64,000 nucleotides of DNA from Flavobacteriales bacterium (GTDB lineage: Bacteria; Bacteroidota; Bacteroidia; Flavobacteriales_D; Sanyastnellaceae). The stretch's first letter is position 1. Every line of letters begins with the position of its first letter. Both the position numbers and the translations under genes were made by a program. The notes under the pieces are model-generated. The model made no database searches. It had not been told where the DNA came from and saw only the letters and a list, made by a program, of their open reading frames with translations. Location of the stretch: the NCBI GenBank assembly GCA_044239865.1, contig JBIIAO010000005.1:41537-105536 (forward strand). Direction: 5' to 3'. Positions 15,955 through 37,414 of this stretch are shown here, in pieces.

Positions 15955-15962
15955 TATATTTG
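15955..15962 (+). promoter_or_regulatory. Candidate -7 promoter box (TATATTTG) for the marR-yceI unit
   Basis: Exact TAnnTTTG match, 4 nt upstream of the GTG start at 15967. Confidence 0.4.
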
Positions 15963-15966
15963 CCCT

Positions 15967-16428
15967 GTGAAATCAATCGGGGAAGAAATACAACAGTCGG
16001 AGTTTAGTGATGTCTATCAAAAGCTAGGCATTAATATTCTCTTCACTGCTGCATGGTTTGGAGAGATGAATAGAATTGCTCTGAAGGATTATAAAATTTC
16101 CTTGCCGCAGTACAACGTTCTTCGAATTTTACGCGGACAGAAAGGACAGGCCATCTCAGTAGCTGGACTGTGCGAGCGAATGATTGACAAAAGCAGCAAT
16201 GCTTCGCGAATTGTAGATAAACTTGAAATTCGAAGGCTTGTTTTAAGAAGAGTTTGCGACAAAGACCGAAGACAAGTAGATGTTATTATTACAGAAAAAG
16301 GATTGGCACTTTTGGAAGATTTAGATGAAAAAGTTCCAACCTTCAAAACAATTATGTCGAAACAATTGTCTTACAAAGATGTCGAGACGTTGAATTTCGC
16401 TCTCGACCAAATTAGAAATCAGAAATAA
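15967..16428 (+). CDS. MarR-family transcriptional regulator
   Basis: 153 aa. The winged-helix segment (LPQYNVLRILRGQKGQAISVAGLCERMIDKSSNASRIVDKLEIRRLVLR...DRRQVDV) is typical of MarR. Confidence 0.85.
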   Translation: MKSIGEEIQQSEFSDVYQKLGINILFTAAWFGEMNRIALKDYKISLPQYNVLRILRGQKGQAISVAGLCERMIDKSSNASRIVDKLEIRRLVLRRVCDKDRRQVDVIITEKGLALLEDLDEKVPTFKTIMSKQLSYKDVETLNFALDQIRNQK

Positions 16429-19209: not shown

Positions 19210-20594
19210 AGAAAATTATTCTATTACTTTTCGCTTTCGTAATTCTGGTAAGTCAGAGTAACGCGCAATTCACCAAACAAGATTCTTCAGTTGTGAAAGG
19301 CTTCTATTCCGAGGCGCTTTCAACAGCTCAAGCCTACAACGACTTGTACTACCTCTGCAAGAAAATTGGTCACCGTATTGCGGGTTCAGAAGCTGCGGAT
19401 AAAGCCATTCTTTGGGGGGATTCTGTGTTGAAATCGATTCCTGCTGACAACGTTTTCCTCATGCCTGTAAAGGTTCCAAAATGGAAACGCGGGAAGAAAG
19501 AATTCGCAGCCATTTATGTTGGAAAGAAGAAATCCGAAATTCCCTTGCGTGCATTGGGTGGTTCTGTTGGAACAAATGGTACACTGAAAGCAGAGGTAGT
19601 TGAAGTGAAAGACTTTGAAGACCTGAAAGCTAAAGGCGATCTAGTGAAAGGAAAAATCGTGTTCATCAATAAGGCATTCGATCCTTCGATCATAAACACT
19701 GGTTCAGCCTACGGAAATACCTCTCCGATAAGAACGAACGGAGCTTCAGAAGCGGCGAAATACGGCGCTGTCGGATGTGTCATTCGCTCGCTCACTTCTG
19801 CCGACGATAAGTTTCCGCATACTGGTGCCATGCGCTACAAAGACGATGTAGCCAAGATTCCAGCGGCAGCTTTGAGCAGCCTCGACGCACATTTTCTGCA
19901 CGAGGCCCTTCAATCCAATAAAAAAGTGCTTTTCGAAATGCGCATGGAATGTGAGCGCTTCGACAGCGTAATGCAATCCAATGTGATCGGAGAAATCAAA
20001 GGAAGTTTGTATCCTGAAAAAATTATTGTCGTGGGTGGACACCTCGATTCATGGGATGTGGGTGAAGGTGCGCACGACGATGGAACGGGTATAGTTCAGA
20101 GCATGGAAGTGTTGCGCATTATGAAGGCAACCGGATACAAGCCGGCATGCACCATTCGCGCAGTGCTTTACATTAATGAAGAGTTCGGAAATGACGGTGG
20201 TGAAACATACGCGAAAGTTGCCAAAGAAAAAGGTTGGGAACACGTCGCGGCCATAGAAAGCGACGGAGGTGGATTCACTCCGAAGGGGTTCAGTTGCGAT
20301 GCGCAAGATGGACAAGTGGAATGGGCGAAATCGTTGATGCCTTTCTTCGAACCGTACAATTTATTTTCTTTCAAAAGAGGGTGGAGCGGTGTAGACATTG
20401 GCCCCTTGAAAAACGGGAGCACCATGCTGTTTGGGTTAATGGTAGATGGACAGCGATACTTCGATTTTCACCATACGGATAACGATCGATTTGAAAACGT
20501 AAACAAACGCGAATTGGAATTGGGCGCTGCGTCTATGGCTTCGCTTGTTTACTTCATTGATCAGAAAGTTCAGAAAGAAATACCGCAGAAATAA
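19206..20594 (+). CDS. M28-family metallopeptidase with PA domain
   Basis: Signal peptide plus the metal-ligand blocks GGHLDSWDVGEGAHDDGTG and NEEFG. Confidence 0.85.
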   Translation: MKKIILLLFAFVILVSQSNAQFTKQDSSVVKGFYSEALSTAQAYNDLYYLCKKIGHRIAGSEAADKAILWGDSVLKSIPADNVFLMPVKVPKWKRGKKEFAAIYVGKKKSEIPLRALGGSVGTNGTLKAEVVEVKDFEDLKAKGDLVKGKIVFINKAFDPSIINTGSAYGNTSPIRTNGASEAAKYGAVGCVIRSLTSADDKFPHTGAMRYKDDVAKIPAAALSSLDAHFLHEALQSNKKVLFEMRMECERFDSVMQSNVIGEIKGSLYPEKIIVVGGHLDSWDVGEGAHDDGTGIVQSMEVLRIMKATGYKPACTIRAVLYINEEFGNDGGETYAKVAKEKGWEHVAAIESDGGGFTPKGFSCDAQDGQVEWAKSLMPFFEPYNLFSFKRGWSGVDIGPLKNGSTMLFGLMVDGQRYFDFHHTDNDRFENVNKRELELGAASMASLVYFIDQKVQKEIPQK

Positions 20595-21074
20595 TTATCT
20601 GCCGTACATGTCTTTGTGCCACGTATTCGCGAAGGGCTTCCATTTAGAAGTGGTCCAATCGCCAACTGTGGCAACGGTTGTGTCAAGAACAAGTGTTTCA
20701 TCGGTAAGTCTATTCGCTTTGCGAAGCGCCCAGAATTGCGCGATGCCCTCTGTTTGAATCTCGCTATTTTCTTGGAACATTACAGTAAGTCGATCGAACA
20801 AATTCACGCCAAGCGCATCACCAATGCTAAGCACCTCTCTGTTCAATTTATCTATGCTGCATCCGGAAGCGAGCATAATATTTTCATCGGCCGCAACAAC
20901 TAAGATGCGGTTCATTTCAATCCAAGCTTGTCCGGCCATGGCCTTTCCATGGTTGTTCCAACCGGCAAGAAATTTTTCCAATTCAACTTCAATGAAAGAA
21001 CACTGTTCCGCAGTCAGTAATTTGTTTGAAGTGAAGACCCAAAGTCTAGCGTGTGTGGCAAGTTGAATTTCCAT
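20595..21074 (-). CDS. Conserved hypothetical cytoplasmic protein, last gene of the XrtF operon
   Basis: 159 aa. I saw no TM segment and no Walker motifs. Its start lies 2 nt after the stop of the upstream gene. Confidence 0.6.
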   Translation of the reverse strand: MEIQLATHARLWVFTSNKLLTAEQCSFIEVELEKFLAGWNNHGKAMAGQAWIEMNRILVVAADENIMLASGCSIDKLNREVLSIGDALGVNLFDRLTVMFQENSEIQTEGIAQFWALRKANRLTDETLVLDTTVATVGDWTTSKWKPFANTWHKDMYGR

Positions 21075-21076
21075 AA

Positions 21077-21619
21077 TTACAAAGATCGGTTGAATAATTT
21101 TTTTGCCGGAATGAATATAAGCACAAGCACAGGCGACTGCAAAATGCCCATAATTCCGCGAACAGCGGGATATACGAGTTCATCTTTGTGAATGAATTTT
21201 CCGAGCATGAAAGCGGCAATAGCGAAGCCCAAACAAATCCCTTCCACCAAAATGAAAATTTTAATTTCCTTTTTTTGGAATTGAAGGAAGTAGAGCGCGG
21301 CAATATTTAAAATTGTGAATACACCAATGGAAGCAAATGTGATAATCCATTTAAGCTTACTGAGTTGTGAAGCGTTCAGCGAGTATAGCGTTTGAATAGT
21401 GCTGTGGCTGTAATAATAATCGAAGTTCGATTTGCTTTTTTCGGCACTTAACCATTGAATTTTGGTTGAAGTAGTTTGTTCGAAAAAACCTGGGAGTTGG
21501 GCACCTTTTTCAAGAATGAAATTCACATTCACCTTGGCTTGCTCTTGGTAAAAGCCAAGACCAATCATTGCGATACCTATCGCAAAAAGAATGATTTTAT
21601 TTTTCTTCGGAATTGCCAT
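21077..21619 (-). CDS. Exosortase F system-associated membrane protein (putative)
   Basis: 180 aa with about 4 hydrophobic helices, immediately downstream of xrtF with a 23-nt overlap. This is the position expected for the XrtF partner family. I placed the start at the ATG at 21619 (MAIPKKNKII). Confidence 0.65.
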   Translation of the reverse strand: MAIPKKNKIILFAIGIAMIGLGFYQEQAKVNVNFILEKGAQLPGFFEQTTSTKIQWLSAEKSKSNFDYYYSHSTIQTLYSLNASQLSKLKWIITFASIGVFTILNIAALYFLQFQKKEIKIFILVEGICLGFAIAAFMLGKFIHKDELVYPAVRGIMGILQSPVLVLIFIPAKKLFNRSL

Positions 21620-22124
21620 TTGCAGGGACATACATCTTAGACCACCACCACCAGAAGGCAAAAACTACGGCATACACTAAGGCAGTGAAGGTGTAATCGT
21701 GATTGAATGCGAGATAATCTTCGTCCCAATAAACAATAAAGGCCAACGCCATAATGCGAAGAATGTTCATGAATTGAATCACGAACAACCCAAGTGGTAT
21801 AAACCAGATTCTGTTTTTATTCGTGCCTGGATAAGCCACAACGAAGATGATAAAAAGCGCCATGAGAATCATTCCGTCGCAAGGAGCTCCTACTGTAACT
21901 CCAGCTGTACCTTCAATAGCAATGTGGTTTCTGTATAGTCCGTCGTCGAAGAAACGAACCGAAAATTGGAAGACTCGCAAAAGAGTTTCCGCTCCTTTCA
22001 CTAAAAAATCTACAAGTATCTCGTCGATGTTGGTAGAAGGCAGTAAGTACAACTCATAAAAAAAATACCATCCGAAATAGAGGATGGTACCAATGACAAA
22101 AAATCGGATGAGTGGATTTTTCAC
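21597..22124 (-). CDS. xrtF: Exosortase family protein XrtF
   Basis: 175 aa polytopic protein with the exosortase catalytic-type motifs: Cys in GAPCDG, Arg in MNILR, His in FNHDY. GTG start, 8 nt after the upstream stop. Confidence 0.85.
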   Translation of the reverse strand: MKNPLIRFFVIGTILYFGWYFFYELYLLPSTNIDEILVDFLVKGAETLLRVFQFSVRFFDDGLYRNHIAIEGTAGVTVGAPCDGMILMALFIIFVVAYPGTNKNRIWFIPLGLFVIQFMNILRIMALAFIVYWDEDYLAFNHDYTFTALVYAVVFAFWWWWSKMYVPANGNSEEK

Positions 22125-22132
22125 TGACTATT

Positions 22133-22360
22133 TTAAGAAGCTTTTTTCTTTTTAAGATCGAAGGCTTTTTTTCCTCCAAGGGCCGCTCCTGCAGCGATTA
22201 ACAAACTTACCCCGCCATCGATTGGACAAACTGTTCCGAATGGACCACCACACGGCGCGGCTCCACCGCTAGGCGGAGTTGGGGGCGCCTGACAAATTCC
22301 AATAGCTGCAATACAGAAAAGGAAAATTGACAAAACGAGTAATTTTCTAAAACGATTCAT
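22133..22360 (-). CDS. 75-aa secreted mini-protein with an exosortase-type C-terminal sorting signal (PIDGG motif, TM helix, Lys-rich tail)
   Basis: Full sequence: MNRFRKLLVLSIFLFCIAAIGICQAPPTPPSGGAAPCGGPFGTVCPIDGGVSLLIAAGAALGGKKAFDLKKKKAS. I placed the start at the ATG at 22360, which has a TATATTTG box 4 nt upstream. The longer track ORF (to 22528) would run through the divergent promoter and the wzc start. Confidence 0.7.
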   Translation of the reverse strand: MNRFRKLLVLSIFLFCIAAIGICQAPPTPPSGGAAPCGGPFGTVCPIDGGVSLLIAAGAALGGKKAFDLKKKKAS

Positions 22361-22364
22361 GTCA

Positions 22365-22372
22365 CAAATATA
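22365..22372 (-). promoter_or_regulatory. Candidate -7 promoter box (TATATTTG) for the XrtF operon
   Basis: The minus strand reads TATATTTG, followed by TGAC and then ATG. Confidence 0.45.
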
Positions 22373-22434
22373 ATGGACTTTAATTATTTCCACCCCCATT
22401 CGGTCTAAAATCTTCATTATTGCCTCTCTTCCTT

Positions 22435-22442
22435 TATATTTG
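22435..22442 (+). promoter_or_regulatory. Candidate -7 promoter box (TATATTTG) for the wzc-like polysaccharide operon
   Basis: Exact TAnnTTTG match, 18 nt upstream of the ATG at 22461. Confidence 0.45.
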
Positions 22443-22460
22443 TCACTCTCGAGAGAACCC

Positions 22461-24881
22461 ATGGCAGAAACTAAATCGAATTTTCTAGACGCTGACGACC
22501 TCAGGCCGATATTAAGGTTCCTGAACAAAAGTTGGTTCTGGATTGTAGCATGCGCCCTAATAGCATTCGTTGCGGCGTATTTCTACACCCACAGATTGCC
22601 CAGTATTTACGCTGCAAAAACAGAGATTTTACTTCGCTCATCTGAGACATACGATTATCAAAAAAGTATGTACAGTGAATTGGGTTACATTTCTTTAATG
22701 CAGGACGTTACCAATCAAAAACGTATAATCGCTTCTTATGACATCGTAGAAAAGAGCTTGGAAAAGCTCGACTTTACAATTTCTTATTTCTTGGTTGGAA
22801 GGGTGAAGACCTTACAAGTGGACGAATTCGATGCCATGAAGGTCAAGTGTGATTGGAAAAAAATGGCTGCAGGAATGCACAATGTTCCGCTGAATATTAA
22901 AGTTCTAGATATTGGACATTATGAGTTGAGTTACGAATACGGAGGAAAACTTAGGTCGGCTACGTATGAATTCGGGAAAGAATACATTGAAGAGCTTTTT
23001 ACAATTCAATTGGATTTGGCTTCCCATATAGATGAGTCGAGACTTTCCACGGTTACAGATCAAAGCTTCCAAATACGGGTGAGACCAATGAAACATTTGG
23101 TGGATAAATACATGGGAGCCCTAACCATTGAAAATGTCGAATTCACAAGCATCTTAACGCTAACATGCAAGGACGAGCTGCCCACTAGAGCGAAAACCTT
23201 CCTTGATACATTGGCAAAGGTCTACATTGATTATACGCTCTACAACGAGATTGCCATCAATGAAAATACGCAGGCCTACATAGACATTCAAATTGATAAG
23301 ATTGTCAAAATTATCGATTCATTGGAATTGGCAATGGAGACATTCAAAGACGCTCGAGATATTCTTGATTTGAGTAAAGAGCAAGACGCGGCATTTGCGG
23401 CATTAACCAGCTCTGATGTTACGCTCCGTGATTTGGAACTCAGACGAGAATCTATACAGGGCTTGGAGAATTTTCTTTTGAAGGAGCCAGATAGAGCGGT
23501 TATTCCACCAATGAATTATTTGCGAGAAGAGGATGTCACCTTAACCGAGTTGGTGAAAGACTTGTTTCAATTGAAACAAAAACGAAGCTCGTTGTTGGTT
23601 GATGTAAAAGCTCCAGATAAACGTGTTCAGCGTGTAGACTCTACGCTTCAGACTATTCGGAATAGTATTTTTAAATACACACGAGACACGAAAGTTGCAA
23701 TTGATCAACGAATCAGAGATTTGAAGCTTCAAATCCTTGAATTAGAGGCAGAGCTTGCAAATATTCCAAAAAGTGAACGTGACCTTATGTCTATTGAGCG
23801 AAAGCTTAAGGTGAACGAAGAGTTATATACCTTCCTTTTGGAAAAGAAGGCCAACACAGTTATCGCACGTGCCGCAATTATTCCGCAGACAAGTGTTATT
23901 GAGGCAGCTCGAAATATGGGCGTGGTGGGCCCCGACCGGCAGAGCATTATTTATTTGTGGATAGGCATCGGGATTCTTATTTCGCTGATTATTGGACTCA
24001 TTCGAATGGTCTTCTTTGAGCATATTGAGCATTTGCGCGAATTGAAGCAATTAACAAAACTTCCTGTTATCAGCGGTATTCCGAACTATGAGGAAATAGA
24101 ACGAGATCCAATTGCAATTCATGCCAATCCGCGAGGAAATGTAAGTGAGGCCTTCCGAACTCTTCGAACGAATTTGCAATACCTTCTACCCGATAGCGGT
24201 CAAAGCCTTATTTTGATCTCATCACTTCATCCTGGAGAAGGAAAAACATTTATTTCAACAAACTTAGCCGCCACTTTGGCCAAAGCATCGAAGAAAGTGC
24301 TTCTGTTAGACTTTGACTTGCACAAACCGAAAGTGCATAAAATGTTCCGCACAACAAATACCATGGGGGTAAGTACCTATTTAATTGGTAAGGCTACTTT
24401 CGATGATGTCGTTTTTCAGTCAGATATCGAGAATTTAGATATTGTACTTGCAGGTCCCGTGCCCCCAAATGCATCGGAGCTTTTGCTTAACGCTAGAGTA
24501 GACGAGCTACTTGCAGAAGGATTGAAGCGCTATGATTATGTAATTATTGATACTCCGCCAATCATGCTTATTACAGACAGCTTGGTGCTGCTTGCGAAAG
24601 TAGATCGTGGAATTCTTGTAATGAACACCCTAAAAGCAACGAAGCAAGGTGTTCAATATTTAGAAGATGTTTTGAATCAAAACAGTCTGAGCAATACAAG
24701 TATTCTGCTTAATAACATTAAGCAAAAACGCTGGAGATACTATTACGGAAAATATGCTTATCGTTACGGCTATGGTTACGGTTATGGATACGGTTATGGA
24801 TACGGCTACGGTTATGGCTACGGATACGGTGGTTACGGAGAAGAAGGTAAAGCCAAGGGTAAAAAGAAGAAAGACAAATAA
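22461..24881 (+). CDS. Polysaccharide co-polymerase / tyrosine autokinase (Wzc/GumC type)
   Basis: N-terminal Wzz-like region with a TM helix and a long coiled-coil periplasmic part, then a second TM helix. The kinase domain has Walker A (GEGKTFIS), A' (LLLDFDLHKP) and B (YVIIDTPP), followed by a Tyr-rich tail. I placed the start at the ATG at 22461. Confidence 0.9.
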   Translation: MAETKSNFLDADDLRPILRFLNKSWFWIVACALIAFVAAYFYTHRLPSIYAAKTEILLRSSETYDYQKSMYSELGYISLMQDVTNQKRIIASYDIVEKSLEKLDFTISYFLVGRVKTLQVDEFDAMKVKCDWKKMAAGMHNVPLNIKVLDIGHYELSYEYGGKLRSATYEFGKEYIEELFTIQLDLASHIDESRLSTVTDQSFQIRVRPMKHLVDKYMGALTIENVEFTSILTLTCKDELPTRAKTFLDTLAKVYIDYTLYNEIAINENTQAYIDIQIDKIVKIIDSLELAMETFKDARDILDLSKEQDAAFAALTSSDVTLRDLELRRESIQGLENFLLKEPDRAVIPPMNYLREEDVTLTELVKDLFQLKQKRSSLLVDVKAPDKRVQRVDSTLQTIRNSIFKYTRDTKVAIDQRIRDLKLQILELEAELANIPKSERDLMSIERKLKVNEELYTFLLEKKANTVIARAAIIPQTSVIEAARNMGVVGPDRQSIIYLWIGIGILISLIIGLIRMVFFEHIEHLRELKQLTKLPVISGIPNYEEIERDPIAIHANPRGNVSEAFRTLRTNLQYLLPDSGQSLILISSLHPGEGKTFISTNLAATLAKASKKVLLLDFDLHKPKVHKMFRTTNTMGVSTYLIGKATFDDVVFQSDIENLDIVLAGPVPPNASELLLNARVDELLAEGLKRYDYVIIDTPPIMLITDSLVLLAKVDRGILVMNTLKATKQGVQYLEDVLNQNSLSNTSILLNNIKQKRWRYYYGKYAYRYGYGYGYGYGYGYGYGYGYGYGGYGEEGKAKGKKKKDK
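24765..24839 (+). repeat. Coding (Tyr-Gly)11-Gly-Tyr-Gly dipeptide repeat in the autokinase tail
   Basis: tac ggc tat ggt tac ggt tat gga ..., giving 11 consecutive YG codon pairs with alternating synonymous codons. Confidence 0.95.
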
Positions 24882-24892
24882 TAGCGTAGACC

Positions 24893-25537
24893 ATGGTATC
24901 GCTTATTGTTACAACCTACAATTACGCACAATTTATTGAACGTGCCATTAGAAGCGGTCTAGATCAATCGCTATCAAAAACCGATTTCGAAGTAATCGTT
25001 GTCAACGACGCTTCCACCGATTCTACCGAAGCTATTTTAGAAAATTATTCAGACGTTCTGCGAGTATTTAATCTAAAGGAAAATCTCGGTTTGGCTGGCG
25101 CACGGAATTTTGGAATTCGAAAGGCACGCGGACAGTTCGTGGTGTTTTTAGATGCAGACGATTACTTGCATTCAGAATCTCTTCGCGTACAGAATTTATT
25201 CCTCAACGAGAATAACGCCTTCGATGCAGTCGCAATAGATTATTATATGGTGAATGAAAGAGGCCAGCACATGGAACACATTTCTTCGAGCGATAAACCC
25301 ATTGCTTGTGGAATAATGTTTCGAAAAGATTACCTCTTCAACATAGGACTATACGACGAGAATTTCACAGCTCGAGAAGAAGAAGATTTACGAATCAGAT
25401 GGGAGCAAGCGGGTTACGGAATCTATCATATTCCAGTGCCGTTGTACAGATATCGCATGCACGAGAACAACCTCACGAAAGACAATCAGAAGATGTCTGA
25501 CTCTCAACTGAAATTAAATCAGAAGCACAACAGATGA
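24893..25537 (+). CDS. Family 2 glycosyltransferase (short form)
   Basis: VSLIVTTYNYAQFIERAIRS, VVNDASTDST and FLDADD motifs. Confidence 0.85.
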   Translation: MVSLIVTTYNYAQFIERAIRSGLDQSLSKTDFEVIVVNDASTDSTEAILENYSDVLRVFNLKENLGLAGARNFGIRKARGQFVVFLDADDYLHSESLRVQNLFLNENNAFDAVAIDYYMVNERGQHMEHISSSDKPIACGIMFRKDYLFNIGLYDENFTAREEEDLRIRWEQAGYGIYHIPVPLYRYRMHENNLTKDNQKMSDSQLKLNQKHNR

Positions 25538-26067
25538 TTAAATTTTTAGAGGGAAAACAAGTCTATTTGCGTCCGCTTACCATAGAAGACGCAAGCGATA
25601 TTTATTTGAAATGGTTAAATGATCCTGAAGTAACACGTGGCTTGGCTTCTGGTTATTTCCCAACCACACAGCAAGAGCTTATCAATTATGTAAACGGAGC
25701 GCTGAGAGATCAGAACACCGTCTTTTTTGCGCTGTGCGAAAAAGAAAGCAATCTACATATCGGTAATGTGAAAGTCGATCGCATCGATTGGGTAGCGCAA
25801 ACCTGTGAACTCGGATTAATCATTGGCGAAGCGTCTGCGCGTGGCAGAGGTTTGGGACTTGAAGCCATGAAGCTTGTGATTAATTTCGTTTTTGACGATT
25901 TGAATTTGAATAAAATTACTTTGGCTGTTTTTCAAAACAATCCGGGTGCGTTGAAATTATATGAAAGATTGGACTTTCAAATTGAAGGGCGATTTGTCAA
26001 TCATGTTTTTAAAGAAGGAAGACTCTGGGATAAAATCTATCTATCATTATTCAACCCGAAGAAATAA
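25534..26067 (+). CDS. GNAT-family N-acetyltransferase (RimJ/RimL-like)
   Basis: YLRPLTIEDASDIYLKWLNDPEV plus the acetyl-CoA loop RGRGLG. It overlaps its neighbours by 4 nt and 1 nt. Confidence 0.82.
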   Translation: MIKFLEGKQVYLRPLTIEDASDIYLKWLNDPEVTRGLASGYFPTTQQELINYVNGALRDQNTVFFALCEKESNLHIGNVKVDRIDWVAQTCELGLIIGEASARGRGLGLEAMKLVINFVFDDLNLNKITLAVFQNNPGALKLYERLDFQIEGRFVNHVFKEGRLWDKIYLSLFNPKK

Positions 26068-26828
26068 TGAATCTAGCCCTTCTGCAAGCCCGTATGGGCT
26101 CTACACGATTGCCGGGAAAAGTTCTTAAAGAGTTAAACGGAATTCCAATAATTCAGACATTGGTGAATCGCGTGTCTCAAGCAAAATGCATCGATAAAAT
26201 TGCAGTGGTAACATCAACGAATGATGAAGACGATGCACTCGAGAATTATTGTAAAGAGCACAATATCTTAGTTTTTAGAGGTTCCGATTGGGACGTGCTT
26301 GATCGGTTCTACTCAGCCGCGAAATTTTTCGGAGCGCAAGAAGGCGATAACATCATTCGACTTACTAGCGATTGCCCTACCCATCATGGAAGTGCTGTGG
26401 ATTGGGTGTTTGAGCAGTTTGTGAAATTTGGAGTAGATCTGTTTTCAAACAGCAATGAAGACCCAAATTTCTTAGAAGACGGATTCGATGTGGAGGTGGT
26501 GAAGTTCTCGGTTTTAGAAAATGCTTTTCAACACGCAAAGCTGCACAGTGAACGCGAGCATGTTATTCCGTATGTAAAAAACTCAAAAAAATTCAGCTTG
26601 GGTTTCCGCAAAATGAACGACAACTGTAACTTTAAGTTGTCTGTTGATACTTCCGCCGATTTTGCTTTTGTTGAAGCCATTTTTGCCGAATTTGGTGCTC
26701 GTGATTTCAACATACATGATGTTGTACATTTGTTAGAGACCAAACCTGAATTATTAAAGATTAACGAAGAGAGCATTATCAATGCGGGCTACGCGAAATC
26801 ATTACGAGAAGATACAATTGTGAAATGA
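26067..26828 (+). CDS. Cytidylyltransferase-fold protein (SpsF/acylneuraminate cytidylyltransferase-like)
   Basis: The N-terminus (ALLQARMGSTRLPGKVLKELNGIPII) is characteristic of the family. Confidence 0.72.
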   Translation: MNLALLQARMGSTRLPGKVLKELNGIPIIQTLVNRVSQAKCIDKIAVVTSTNDEDDALENYCKEHNILVFRGSDWDVLDRFYSAAKFFGAQEGDNIIRLTSDCPTHHGSAVDWVFEQFVKFGVDLFSNSNEDPNFLEDGFDVEVVKFSVLENAFQHAKLHSEREHVIPYVKNSKKFSLGFRKMNDNCNFKLSVDTSADFAFVEAIFAEFGARDFNIHDVVHLLETKPELLKINEESIINAGYAKSLREDTIVK

Positions 26829-28165
26829 AAACGATCACCCTTCCACACATTACGAACTTCGCTAAGAGCGACGAGTACAGAAAGAAAATTCACGATTTAA
26901 TTCCGGGAGGAGCGCATACCTATTCCAAAGGTGACGATCAATTTCCGATTAAATCGCCCGCAGCAATCACACACGCGAAAGGTGTGTATTGTTGGGATTT
27001 AGACGGAAACAAATATCTAGATACCCTTATGGGTTTGTATTCCGTTTCGTTGGGACACGCCTATGAGCCTGTTTTAGAAGCGGTGAAGAAGCAACTTGAG
27101 AAAGGTGTGAATTTCACACGTCCGAGCGTTATTGAAATGGAAATGGCAGAGAAATTTCTCTCGCTTGTTCCGCAACACGACATGATCAAATTCGCGAAGA
27201 ACGGTTCTGTGGCAACAACAGCAGCCATTAAACTTTCTCGCGCATACACCGGGAAACATTTAATCGCTCGTCCAGCAGAACACCCGTTCTATAGCTACGA
27301 CGATTGGTTCATTGGCTCTACGGCTTGCGACTTCGGTATTCCGAAAGAAATAAAGCAATTCACTGTTACCTACAAGGAAGATTCTATCGAAGATTTAGAG
27401 CGACTGTTCAATGAATATCCCGGGCAAATTGCTTGTGTAATTTCTGAACCTGAAAAATGGAATGTCCTAGAACCCGATTTCTACCAGAAGGCCATTGATC
27501 TTGCGCATAAGAATGGCGCATTGTGGATTATGGATGAAATGATCACCGGATTCAAATCAGACTTTCCGGGATCTATAAAAAAATTCAACGCAGAACCTGA
27601 TTTCTGCACGTGGGGAAAAGGTATCGCAAACGGATTTTCTTTCTGTGCTTTAACAGGAAAAAAAGAAATCATGGAATACGGCGGTATTCGTAGAAAAGGT
27701 GAGCCGAAAGTGTTTTTGGTAAGCACCACACACGGTGGTGAAACACATGGAATAGCTGCTGCTCTAGCCACTATTGATGTGTTTGAAAACAATCCAGTTA
27801 TTCAGCACAATCACGCCATTGGAGATTATTTCATGAACGGTGTGAATGGAATTTTATCTCGAAGAAAATTGGAAGATTATTTCGCGTTTACTGGTTTCAA
27901 TTGGTGCGTAGGTTTGGTGGTGAAGAATCAAAAGAAAGAACCGTGTTTGTTCTACAGAACACTGTTTATGCAGGAAATGATTCAGCGCGGAGTTCTTTAC
28001 CAAGGAATTCTATCGCCATGTTACTCGCACACACAAGACGATATAGATTTCATGCTTGCAGCTTTCGATGAAAGTTGTGAAGTGTTTGAGCGAGCCTTGG
28101 AAGATGGCGTAGAGAAGTATTTAGTGGGTGATGAAATTAAGCCTGTCTTCAGAAAAATAAATTAA
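26825..28165 (+). CDS. Class III PLP aminotransferase (glutamate-1-semialdehyde aminomutase-like)
   Basis: LIPGGAHTYSKGDDQFP, DEMITGF and a WGKGIANG-type lysine region, 446 aa. Confidence 0.82.
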   Translation: MKTITLPHITNFAKSDEYRKKIHDLIPGGAHTYSKGDDQFPIKSPAAITHAKGVYCWDLDGNKYLDTLMGLYSVSLGHAYEPVLEAVKKQLEKGVNFTRPSVIEMEMAEKFLSLVPQHDMIKFAKNGSVATTAAIKLSRAYTGKHLIARPAEHPFYSYDDWFIGSTACDFGIPKEIKQFTVTYKEDSIEDLERLFNEYPGQIACVISEPEKWNVLEPDFYQKAIDLAHKNGALWIMDEMITGFKSDFPGSIKKFNAEPDFCTWGKGIANGFSFCALTGKKEIMEYGGIRRKGEPKVFLVSTTHGGETHGIAAALATIDVFENNPVIQHNHAIGDYFMNGVNGILSRRKLEDYFAFTGFNWCVGLVVKNQKKEPCLFYRTLFMQEMIQRGVLYQGILSPCYSHTQDDIDFMLAAFDESCEVFERALEDGVEKYLVGDEIKPVFRKIN

Positions 28166-28166
28166 G

Positions 28167-28991
28167 ATGGAACCACTTCGTACAACAGACGCAACGCAAA
28201 TCGACTTTAAGAAAAAGTTCGATTTAACGGATAAGGTCATTGTTATAACAGGTGCTTGCGGATTGGTGGGAAGAGCCTTCTGTGAAGCGGTTGCGCAATT
28301 CGGAGGAATTGTAGTTGCGGCAGATATCGAATTGGCAAATCCTATTCAGTTTGCCAGTGAATTGGCTGAACGAAACAATACAAAATCACTTGGTTTTGTC
28401 CTCGATGTTGCAAACAGATCTTCTGTTGAAACGTTGAAAGAAAGTGTACTTACTTCATTCGGAAGAATAGACGGATTGGTGAACGCACATCAGAATAAAA
28501 CGCATTTAAAATTCGAACCCTTCGAAAGTGTGTCCGATGAAAATTGGGACACTGTTGTTGATGTGAATTTGAAAGGCACGTTTCTAATGTGTCAAATTAT
28601 CGGCTGCCACATGGCAGAAAACGGCGGCGGTAGCGTTGTAAATATCCCTTCAACCTACAGCGTCGTTGCACCGAATCAGAATTTATACAAAGGAACTTCC
28701 TTAGGTTGCCCCGCCGCCTATAGCGCCTCGAAAGGCGGTATCGACGCACTTTCCAGATACCTTGCTTCTTACTGGGCAACGAAGAAAGTGCGTGTAAACA
28801 TGATTACTCCACACGGCGTGTGGAACAATCACGAAGTGCAATTCGAAGAAAATTTCGCGCGCTTCTCTCCCATGGAAAGATTGAGTTACAATCACGAAGT
28901 AGCAAGCGCGCTCATTTATTTACTCAGCGATGCTTCCTCGTATGTTACCGGAGATAACATGAAGGTTGAAGGCGGTTGGACCGTTTGGTGA
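28167..28991 (+). CDS. SDR-family oxidoreductase
   Basis: ITGACGLVG glycine motif and the YSASK catalytic motif. Confidence 0.82.
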   Translation: MEPLRTTDATQIDFKKKFDLTDKVIVITGACGLVGRAFCEAVAQFGGIVVAADIELANPIQFASELAERNNTKSLGFVLDVANRSSVETLKESVLTSFGRIDGLVNAHQNKTHLKFEPFESVSDENWDTVVDVNLKGTFLMCQIIGCHMAENGGGSVVNIPSTYSVVAPNQNLYKGTSLGCPAAYSASKGGIDALSRYLASYWATKKVRVNMITPHGVWNNHEVQFEENFARFSPMERLSYNHEVASALIYLLSDASSYVTGDNMKVEGGWTVW

Positions 28992-28992
28992 T

Positions 28993-30273
28993 ATGCAGGA
29001 AAAACTAGCAACATATTTTGAAAGACTTTGGCCCATCTGCCGAAGTATCACCGGAAACGGCTTGCGCGAATCGTTTCGCATTCTGCGAGAAATTGTTCCC
29101 TTCGAATTAACTGAAGTTCCAACAGGAACGCAAGTCCACGACTGGGAAATTCCGAAAGAATGGAACATCGAAGATGCCTACATTTTAACGCCAGACGGAC
29201 GTAAAGTCGCAGACTTCAAACAGAATAATTTACACGTGTTGAATTATTCAACGCCCGTTGATCAAGAGGTTTCATGGGATGAATTATCGAAACATATTTT
29301 CACCCTTCCTGAGCAGCCCAACGCCATTCCATACGTAACCTCGTATTACGAAGAGAAATGGGGTTTCTGCCTTTCGCACAACGAATGGGCTTTGCTGCCG
29401 AAAGAAGGAAAGTATCGCGTAGTTATTCAATCTGAATTGAAAGAAGGAAGCCTTACTTATGGAGAGGCAATATTGAAGGGCGATTCAGAAAAAGAGATTC
29501 TTTTTTATTCTTATTTGTGTCATCCGAGCATGGCGAACAACGAGCTCAGCGGACCATTGGTTTTGGCCATGCTCTATGAAAAGCTCGCTGCCCTTCCACA
29601 AAGAAAATACACTTATCGATTTGTCCTTGCACCCGAGACCATTGGCTCAATTGCATACCTATCGAAGAACGGACAAGCGTTGAAAGAAAAGCTTCAAGCA
29701 GGATGGGTGCTCACGTGTTGCGGCGACTCAGGAAAAATTCATTACAAGAATTCTCGAAAAGGAAACGCACTTGTCGATCGCATAAGCAAGCACATTTTGA
29801 ATCAACTTCCACTTCAATGGAATGATTTGGAATTTTCTGTTGGTGGAAGCGATGAGCGTCAGTTTTGCTCTCCCGGATATAATCTTCCAATAGGATCTTT
29901 CATGCGCACGCCTTATCAGCGTTACGCGCAATATCACACATCATTAGACAATCGAGATTTCATTTCCATTCCTGTTATGGAAGAAGGGGTTGAAATTTTA
30001 TTCCAAATGGTCTTGGCCCTCGAGATTAACGAAACCTACGAGGCAGTGGTTCAATACGGAGAACCTCAATTGGGTAAACGTGGATTGTATCCGAGTTCAA
30101 ACATGCCGAACACCGATCAGCGAACAATGGTCCACAACATGATGCACCTCATCAACTGGTCAGACGGTGAGCATGATTTGTTAAGCATAGCCGATAAAAA
30201 GGGAATCCCAATGTTTTATTTTGCCCCTTTGGCTAAACTTTGCGAAGAGAAGGGTGTTCTAAGAAGGAAATAA
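28993..30273 (+). CDS. Aminopeptidase-like domain protein (DUF4910/DUF2172-type) of polysaccharide clusters
   Basis: LWPICRSITGNGLRESFRILREIVP...VPTGTQVHDWEIPKEWN is the block I associate with this family. I placed the start at the ATG at 28993, 1 nt after the upstream stop. Confidence 0.65.
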   Translation: MQEKLATYFERLWPICRSITGNGLRESFRILREIVPFELTEVPTGTQVHDWEIPKEWNIEDAYILTPDGRKVADFKQNNLHVLNYSTPVDQEVSWDELSKHIFTLPEQPNAIPYVTSYYEEKWGFCLSHNEWALLPKEGKYRVVIQSELKEGSLTYGEAILKGDSEKEILFYSYLCHPSMANNELSGPLVLAMLYEKLAALPQRKYTYRFVLAPETIGSIAYLSKNGQALKEKLQAGWVLTCCGDSGKIHYKNSRKGNALVDRISKHILNQLPLQWNDLEFSVGGSDERQFCSPGYNLPIGSFMRTPYQRYAQYHTSLDNRDFISIPVMEEGVEILFQMVLALEINETYEAVVQYGEPQLGKRGLYPSSNMPNTDQRTMVHNMMHLINWSDGEHDLLSIADKKGIPMFYFAPLAKLCEEKGVLRRK

Positions 30274-32071: not shown

Positions 32072-32079
32072 TACATTTG
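32072..32079 (+). promoter_or_regulatory. Candidate -7 promoter box (TACATTTG) for the terC-family gene
   Basis: TAnnTTTG match, 4 nt upstream of the ATG at 32084. Confidence 0.4.
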
Positions 32080-37406: not shown

Positions 37407-37414
37407 CAAATATA
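37407..37414 (-). promoter_or_regulatory. Candidate -7 promoter box (TATATTTG) for anmK
   Basis: The minus strand reads TATATTTG, 6 nt upstream of the ATG at 37400. Confidence 0.4.

Follow-up and report, generated by a model that had tools for sequence, protein, structure and literature searches.

A 75-residue PID-CTERM precursor encoded beside exosortase X in a Flavobacteriales genome, a candidate dedicated substrate at a Wzc-type polysaccharide locus

Exosortases were predicted in 2006. Their chemistry, namely hydrolysis versus transpeptidation and the identity of the acceptor, is regarded as unresolved (10.1101/2023.06.07.544157). The present study concerns a 64,000-nucleotide stretch of contig JBIIAO010000005.1 from a Flavobacteriales bacterium (hereafter the window), in which a 75-residue open reading frame (ORF) with a PID-CTERM sorting signal, referred to as the mini-gene, lies directly before the gene for exosortase X (XrtX). 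The mini-gene probably encodes the single, dedicated substrate of the adjacent XrtX, a peptide that would be cut and passed to an acceptor. Several described systems offer a comparison. The PEP-CTERM/exosortase A system (XrtA, EpsH) of Proteobacteria and others shares with the window a homologous enzyme core (PF09721, TIGR04178), a tripartite C-terminal signal abutting a helix, and an association with polysaccharide loci, including Wzc-type kinases (PMC1569441). XrtA, however, acts on many substrates per genome, which are often sizeable and Ser/Thr-rich, whereas XrtX would have a single one, encoded next to it and about 25 residues long when mature; the signature in the window is PIDGG and not Pro-Glu-Pro, and XrtX, a mini-exosortase of 175 aa, gives a match just to the C-terminal half of the EpsH model. 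Archaeosortase A (ArtA) of Haloferax volcanii, which processes PGF-CTERM proteins, is a homologous Cys/Arg/His enzyme whose removal of the C-terminal helix is coupled to lipid attachment (as summarised in 10.1101/2023.06.07.544157). ArtA is the best mechanistic precedent for the transfer of a new C-terminus to a lipid, but one ArtA acts on many substrates, large glycoproteins such as the S-layer protein, and its hosts are archaea without an outer membrane. The closest named relative of XrtX is exosortase F (XrtF) of Flavobacterium johnsoniae, a small Bacteroidota exosortase that likewise has an "associated" membrane protein. XrtF is also the nearest relative studied by experiment, and xrtF and its partner are required for surface colonisation and biofilm formation (PMC10936215); the substrate of XrtF is unknown, whereas XrtX has an obvious adjacent candidate. 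The JDVT-CTERM/MrtJ system resembles the present one in having one target per strain, co-operonic with the processing enzyme (Haft 2023, 10.1101/2023.06.07.544157), but the MrtJ enzymes are CPBP/Rce1-type proteases acting on Cys-containing motifs and are unrelated to exosortases.

The locus in the window is a member of the PID-CTERM/XrtX system (NF046080, NF046081, NF046082; PF28310), which is already catalogued in NCBIfam and Pfam; both the mini-protein and the enzyme pass the curated cutoffs, and the gene order (mini-gene, xrtX, associated membrane protein) is the same. Relatives are annotated by NCBI as "PID-CTERM protein-sorting domain-containing protein" and "exosortase X". A literature search for PID-CTERM or XrtX returned no paper, and none that was found describes the tiny cargo, the pattern of selection, the even Cys counts or the link to Wzc that are set out below. 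Residues 46-65 of the mini-protein match NF046080 (PID_CTERM) at 35 bits (cutoff 26; E = 8.6e-9), and no second PID_CTERM tail besides that of the mini-gene was detected in the 64-kb window. XrtX only just passes the NF046081 cutoff (171.9 bits against 170), its relatives scoring 183-189 bits, and it matches the sister subfamilies less well (67.5 bits for XrtF, TIGR04128, against a cutoff of 90, and 59.7 bits for XrtY). Its Cys82, Arg123 and His142 are invariant among 13 diverse homologues with identities down to 32%, and Haft inferred such Cys, Arg and His residues to be the catalytic triad of exosortases and archaeosortases (10.1101/2023.06.07.544157). The XrtX proteins are labelled XrtF by JGI; the XrtX protein search returned only XrtX-type proteins. 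No solved structure related to the mini-protein or to XrtX was found.

Regarding the mini-gene itself, its translation is MNRFRKLLVLSIFLFCIAAIGICQAPPTPPSGGAAPCGGPFGTVCPIDGGVSLLIAAGAALGGKKAFDLKKKKAS. From the N- to the C-terminus, the protein consists of a signal peptide, a Pro/Gly-rich stretch with two Cys residues, PIDGG, a transmembrane helix and a Lys-rich tail, and the C-terminal signal shows the tripartite layout, with PIDGG followed by GVSLLIAAGAALGG and then by KKAFDLKKKKAS and the stop codon. The ratio of the proportions of nonsynonymous and synonymous differences (pN/pS; Nei-Gojobori method, 21 distinct coding sequences from close relatives) is 0.097 over the whole ORF. By segment it amounts to 0.285 in the signal peptide, 0.036 in Gln24-Asp48 and 0.041 in the C-terminal signal, while pS is about 0.5 in the mature (0.54) and C-terminal segments and 0.38 in the signal peptide. 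Because pN/pS is so low at a pS of about 0.5, the short cargo is judged to be translated, and it is as constrained as the sorting signal. Judged by this pattern, the 75-aa ORF is a real, translated gene under strong purifying selection. A preliminary description of the locus, made from the sequence alone, had given the same coordinates and sequence, with a 23-mer cargo (PPTPPSGGAAPCGGPFGTVCPID, residues 26-48) and two Cys residues separated by seven, which are Cys37 and Cys45. It had asked for proof of translation, for which the pN/pS values computed here now speak, and for conservation of the homologues beyond the sorting signal, which is found in the mature segment.

The same description had considered that the real product might be a longer, upstream-extended ORF. 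An alternative TTG start at 22528 would give 131 aa, and some gene callers do begin the relatives at upstream codons (88-125 aa). In L003, L006, L007, L022-L024 and L027 (L numbers denote related loci and P numbers related proteins), however, an in-frame stop stands 4-10 codons ahead of the conserved Met, showing that the upstream extension is not conserved. The extension would also overlap the start of the divergent wzc gene and the promoter region, and the upstream conservation of the amino acids "YIC" is really that of a DNA motif, TATATTTG. With pN/pS at 0.097 inside the 75-aa ORF, the chance that the product is the 131-aa form, or that the ORF is a non-coding accident, is practically negligible, and the extended ORF was rejected on account of the in-frame stops in relatives. 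The start codon is therefore the ATG at 22360. Regarding the motif, TAnnTTTG is the -7 promoter consensus of Bacteroidota. The TATATTTG box ends 4 nt before the ATG not only in the window but also in the close loci and in L022-L024, and lies 19-27 nt away in L031 and L027; the mRNA of the mini-gene is possibly leaderless. The TAnnTTTG pattern is depleted in the window (30 matches versus 57 +/- 8 expected). Copies noted are at 22365-22372 (-), 22435-22442 (+), 15955-15962 (+), 32072-32079 (+) and 37407-37414 (-); two divergent copies lie inside the 100-nt gap between the mini-gene and wzc, and the pattern also ends 4 nt before the starts of the ORFs at 15967 and 32084. Such spacing suggests that the organism commonly makes mRNAs with no leader or almost none. 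A sigma-70 promoter scan was uninformative, as expected for Bacteroidota. In public gene calls for close relatives (P0001-P0013, P0020, P0022-23), upstream starts are frequent, giving the 88-125-aa products instead of 75 aa, and the surplus N-terminal residues of these automated calls are translated promoter region; annotation pipelines mis-start this tiny gene.

The linkage of the mini-gene to xrtX was assessed in a metagenome scan with an XrtX alignment, which yielded 459 relatives, and the counts are taken from the best 80 loci. A PID-CTERM mini-ORF lies on the same strand upstream of xrtX in 61 of the 68 loci with at least 300 nt of upstream sequence; the gap to xrtX is 3-41 nt in 60 of these loci, and in one the mini-ORF overlaps the xrtX start by 4 nt. 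Exactly one PID tail occurs per locus, always on the mini-ORF and never on a large protein (hidden Markov model scan of 442 kb of related loci). The order of mini-gene, xrtX and the gene for the associated membrane protein is shared by the window, L022-L024, L027/28, L031/32, L034 and L036. According to Haft, a conserved gene neighbourhood can replace the many-targets criterion in the recognition of a dedicated one-to-one sorting system (10.1101/2023.06.07.544157), and by that standard the linkage pattern would place the mini-gene and xrtX in such a system. The preliminary description had also tied the mini-gene to the adjacent divergent polysaccharide cluster, and this tie is real, as 46 of the 50 loci that include 3 kb or more of upstream sequence have a Wzc-like gene at a short distance on that side. 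Its transcription is divergent in the window and wherever gene calls were inspected. The closest relatives of the locus come from metagenome-assembled genomes of freshwater Flavobacteriales, Crocinitomicaceae and other Bacteroidota.

The small size of the cargo is not peculiar to the window. A word-indexed search found 171 homologues, and all of the 120 that were listed carry Pfam PF28310 (PID_CTERM); counted from the conserved Met, nearly all of these are 69-80 aa long, with upstream start calls reaching 125 aa. A profile built from 27 diverse members and searched against 1.84 billion representative proteins gave 402 clusters at E<=1e-10; among the 150 best, 148 have a length of 54-110 aa. 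The two exceptions are a repetitive, low-complexity match of 1397 aa and a tandem fusion of two units with 155 aa. The latter (P0253) contains two complete mini-protein units, each with a signal peptide, a Pro-rich spacer, APIDGG or APIDAG, and a helix, which points to tandem copies of the mini-gene, or to fusion by read-through, in some genomes. Going by these lengths, a tiny cargo is the norm of the PID-CTERM mini-protein family. PIDGG is present in 241 of 267 family members, and the residues invariant across the family (alignment A1) are P46, I47, D48, G49, G50, L54, A56, A57, G62 and K65. The signal-peptide core is separated from PIDGG by a spacer of median length 22 residues (about 10-33), with 30% Pro and 21% Gly, while the peptide from Gln to Asp has a median of 23 residues (range 15-36).

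The Cys content of the spacer follows a rule of parity. In 133 representatives at 50% identity, which were also used for the Gln counts given below, the spacer contains two Cys residues in 81, none in 44, four in 4, six in 2 and an odd number in 2, so that the number is even (0, 2, 4 or 6) in 131 of 133, a parity that fits the prediction from disulfide pairing. Common patterns are C-x7-C (CGGPFGxxC, the type in the window), C-x4-C (CWPPPC) and C-x6-C (CDPLDPAC), the last Cys standing 0-1 residue ahead of the Pro of PIDGG. The idea of a disulfide-looped peptide, raised in the preliminary description, gains from these data, since the Cys pair is kept in the subfamily and the near-universal even count would fit a loop. 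Its proposed alignment check on the Cys pair and the PPxPP segment gave a divided outcome, in that both are conserved within the subfamily but not family-wide, where 44 of 133 representatives lack Cys.

The signal peptide is conserved across the PID-CTERM mini-protein family, and in the window it has a basic n-region (MNRFRK), a 16-residue hydrophobic core and the small residues Gly21 (-3) and Cys23 (-1) before Gln24. Gln directly follows the hydrophobic core in 97 of the 133 representatives, of which 65 have Ala at -1. Pro at +1 blocks signal peptidase I, and the cut assumed in the preliminary description, after ...GICQA (between Ala25 and Pro26), would put Pro at this position. According to the Q-rule of Bacteroidota, signal peptidase I exposes an N-terminal Gln, which is cyclised to pyroglutamate (PMC5837995, PMC10653852). 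In the window protein, Gln24 stands immediately past the hydrophobic core. Therefore, cleavage probably takes place between Cys23 and Gln24 rather than between Ala25 and Pro26. If XrtX cuts after Asp48, the mature peptide would have 25 residues; the tiny size of the cargo noted earlier holds, and its length of about 23 is corrected accordingly to the predicted Gln24-Asp48. The computed monoisotopic mass of pyroGlu-APPTPPSGGAAPCGGPFGTVCPID, with the disulfide and as the free acid ending at Asp48, is 2274.01 Da; a cut after Gly49 would raise it to 2331.03 Da and one after Gly50 to 2388.05 Da. AlphaFold2 with the family alignment predicts helices 3-22 and 49-74 linked by a coil (predicted local distance difference test, pLDDT, 53-68), a model in which no folded domain separates the signal peptide from the C-terminal anchor; the low confidence of the coil joining the two helices agrees with the earlier view that the cargo is not a folded protein. 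By inspection, the O-glycosylation motif of Bacteroidota, D-[ST]-[AILVMT], is absent from the peptide.

The signal peptide of the window protein also has Cys residues close to its end, and lipoprotein-type processing at Cys23 or Cys16, mentioned as a weak alternative in the preliminary description, would give an N-terminally lipidated peptide. The lipobox [LVI][ASTVI][GAS]C requires Gly, Ala or Ser at -1, whereas the sequence I-G-I-C has Ile in this position. Moreover, Cys23 is replaced by Ser in the close relatives P0010, P0016 and P0018 and by Ala in most of the family (...A-Q-P). Lipoprotein processing was rejected on the lipobox misfit and the replacement of Cys23, and is held to be highly improbable.

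From this architecture we infer the order of processing that follows, down to the cut by XrtX and the transfer onto a lipid or polysaccharide. The 75-aa precursor would be exported by Sec, and signal peptidase I would cut between Cys23 and Gln24, after which the new N-terminal Gln would probably be cyclised to pyroglutamate. The C-terminal helix would tether the peptide to the inner membrane, with the Lys-rich tail remaining in the cytoplasm, and Cys37 and Cys45 would form a small periplasmic disulfide loop beside PIDGG. XrtX, through Cys82, Arg123 and His142, would then cut at or next to PIDGG at the membrane surface and so detach the peptide from its anchor. If archaeosortase A and sortases are a guide, XrtX would hand this Pro/Gly-rich peptide of about 25 residues on to an acceptor, most likely a lipid of the membrane or the polysaccharide that the adjacent Wzc pathway exports; because the Wzc neighbourhood recurs, the polysaccharide, or a lipid of the same envelope pathway, appears to be the best candidate. 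The product would be a short, protease-resistant peptide tag or tether rather than a sorted protein.

The same architecture and linkage would serve equally well if XrtX were an endopeptidase only, with no covalent transfer. The disulfide-looped peptide of about 25 residues would then be free in the periplasm or outside the cell, where it might serve as a signal or regulate the adjacent Wzc machinery. The strong constraint on the mature part within the clade (pN/pS 0.036) is what a ligand would show, and it is stated to be unknown whether exosortases and archaeosortases act as one-step transpeptidases (Haft 2023, 10.1101/2023.06.07.544157). On the other hand, the spacer is family-wide a low-complexity Pro/Gly/Asp sequence, little conserved and often without Cys, which fits a specific ligand poorly, and the substrates of ArtA and of rhombosortase finish covalently anchored (10.1101/2023.06.07.544157). 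A freely released peptide is accordingly considered unlikely, yet it is the alternative with the most weight.

The C-terminal helix calls for another alternative, in which the mini-protein is left uncleaved and acts as a single-pass subunit or pseudo-substrate regulator, binding XrtX, the associated protein or Wzc through its helix. The main point in its favor is that the helix and Lys pair are as conserved as the motif (pN/pS 0.041); in addition, a face of small residues (G49 G50 / A56 A57 G58 / G62 G63) could be the proposed contact, and the mini-gene stands in a compact cassette of three to four genes, of which two others also encode small membrane proteins. Against it, PIDGG at the membrane boundary is invariant, and a motif, helix and basic cluster in this order, directly before an exosortase that retains its Cys, Arg and His, are the hallmark of a cleaved sorting signal. 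The signal peptide and the Q-rule site likewise point to an exported N-terminus, and an uncleaved subunit is judged quite unlikely.

The reading of the mini-gene as a dedicated substrate, cut by XrtX and transferred, has to be weighed against a number of observations that speak the other way. No exosortase is known to have a defined acceptor. The helix is unusually conserved for a part that is discarded (L54, A56, A57, G62 and K65 are invariant), and the transmembrane helix could therefore be the functional part of the mini-protein; the spacer sequence is variable family-wide, and a third of the representatives (44/133) have no Cys. At the level of gene linkage, the mini-gene occurs without an adjacent XrtX in L033 and L035, the former adjoining wza and wzc, while in L037, a variant of the polysaccharide locus, and in a soil subclade (L110, L112-L117) a genuine XrtX (185-189 bits) is accompanied by no mini-gene within 6 kb. 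These loci show that mini-gene and XrtX are not always paired in cis. Some XrtX loci also lie away from polysaccharide genes, as in L031, which adjoins uppS and bamA. Among L037, L110 and L112-L117, the associated membrane protein was confirmed only in L114.

The coordinates of the features are collected in Table 1. Within the first 60 nt of xrtX lies a terminator-like hairpin, which is identical in about 20 close loci (only the loop varies), kept in L027/28 and missing from L022-24. Codons 7-24 of xrtX show suppressed synonymous variation (1-3 variants per codon) relative to codons 27-60 (mostly 3-11). Speculatively, the hairpin could attenuate read-through, so that substrate would be made in excess over enzyme. 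Downstream of xrtX, the associated membrane protein has syntenic homologues in nearly all loci. It is followed by a conserved 159-aa protein, which matched nothing in NCBIfam or PADLOC and in Pfam gave only a score below threshold (MFP2b, 15.4 bits; cutoff 24), and which may belong to the XrtX system. On the other side, a Wzc-like gene also stands beside the cassette in L027, L033, L034 and L036, and the order of the polysaccharide genes in the window is the same in L036 and partly so in L027. At its C-terminus (24740-24881, +) the Wzc-like protein in the window carries a Tyr-Gly repeat of unusual length (YRYGYGYGYGYGYGYGYGYGYGGYG), after which comes a Lys-rich tail; the repeat is presumably an expanded form of the C-terminal tyrosine cluster for autophosphorylation. 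An Rfam scan of positions 20000-25000 found no family, and a scan for anti-phage defence families found none.

Table 1. Positions of the mini-gene, its parts and neighbouring elements in the window
Feature	Position	Strand	Basis and remarks
PID-CTERM precursor mini-gene, 75 aa	22133..22360	-	ATG 22360, stop 22135..22133; NF046080 and pN/pS
Signal peptide, residues 1-23 (MNRFRK + hydrophobic core + GIC)	22292..22360	-	AlphaFold2 helix 3-22; predicted signal peptidase I site between Cys23 and Gln24
Predicted mature peptide Gln24-Asp48, QAPPTPPSGGAAPCGGPFGTVCPID	22217..22291	-	28% Pro, 20% Gly; Cys37, Cys45
PIDGG signature motif, Pro46-Gly50, presumed XrtX recognition/cleavage site	22211..22225	-	invariant in alignment A1
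C-terminal transmembrane helix (GGVSLLIAAGAALGG) and basic tail (KKAFDLKKKKAS)	22136..22216	-	AlphaFold2 helix 49-74, invariant residues, pN/pS 0.041
Bacteroidota-type -7 promoter box, TATATTTG (putative function)	22365..22372	-	ends 4 nt before mini-gene ATG
Terminator-like 10-bp hairpin + T8, in first 60 nt of xrtX	22064..22091	-	scan match
Exosortase X (XrtX), 175 aa	21597..22124	-	begins 8 nt past mini-gene stop; NF046081 171.9 bits
XrtX-associated membrane protein	21077..21661	-	start uncertain (listed TTG start overlaps xrtX); NF046082 41 bits, cutoff 75
Conserved 159-aa protein, fourth cassette gene in most loci	20595..21074	-	38% identity to syntenic L027 gene
Wzc-like polysaccharide co-polymerase / tyrosine autokinase	22440..24881	+	probable ATG 22461; Wzz, GNVR, AAA_31 domains; TIGR01007 165.7 bits
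Polysaccharide genes: GT2, GNAT, cytidylyltransferase, class-III aminotransferase, SDR, DUF4910/DUF2172	24893..30273	+	Pfam

A more specific proposal can be made tentatively, as a possibility that we rate below even. Rather than sorting proteins, XrtX would be a dedicated peptide transferase for one peptide of about 25 residues, pyroglutamate-capped, Pro/Gly-rich and often disulfide-looped, whose C-terminus would be coupled to a polysaccharide exported through Wzc or to a lipid. If this is true, the result would be a peptide-capped or peptide-tethered polymer, with the function residing in the conjugate. Exosortases typically act on many large and probably glycosylated proteins, in which the new C-terminus is difficult to trace, whereas with one enzyme and one substrate of about 25 residues any C-terminal adduct could be read directly by top-down mass spectrometry. 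Because the single substrate is so small, exosortase chemistry would become directly testable by mass spectrometry in this system. A tiny, easily missed ORF as substrate could likewise explain the long-unknown substrate of the biofilm-essential XrtF. The XrtX system is abundant in freshwater Flavobacteriales, with 459 relatives from one metagenome scan, and, because of its tight link to the Wzc polysaccharide locus, it probably has a bearing on the surface or biofilm biology of lake bacterioplankton.

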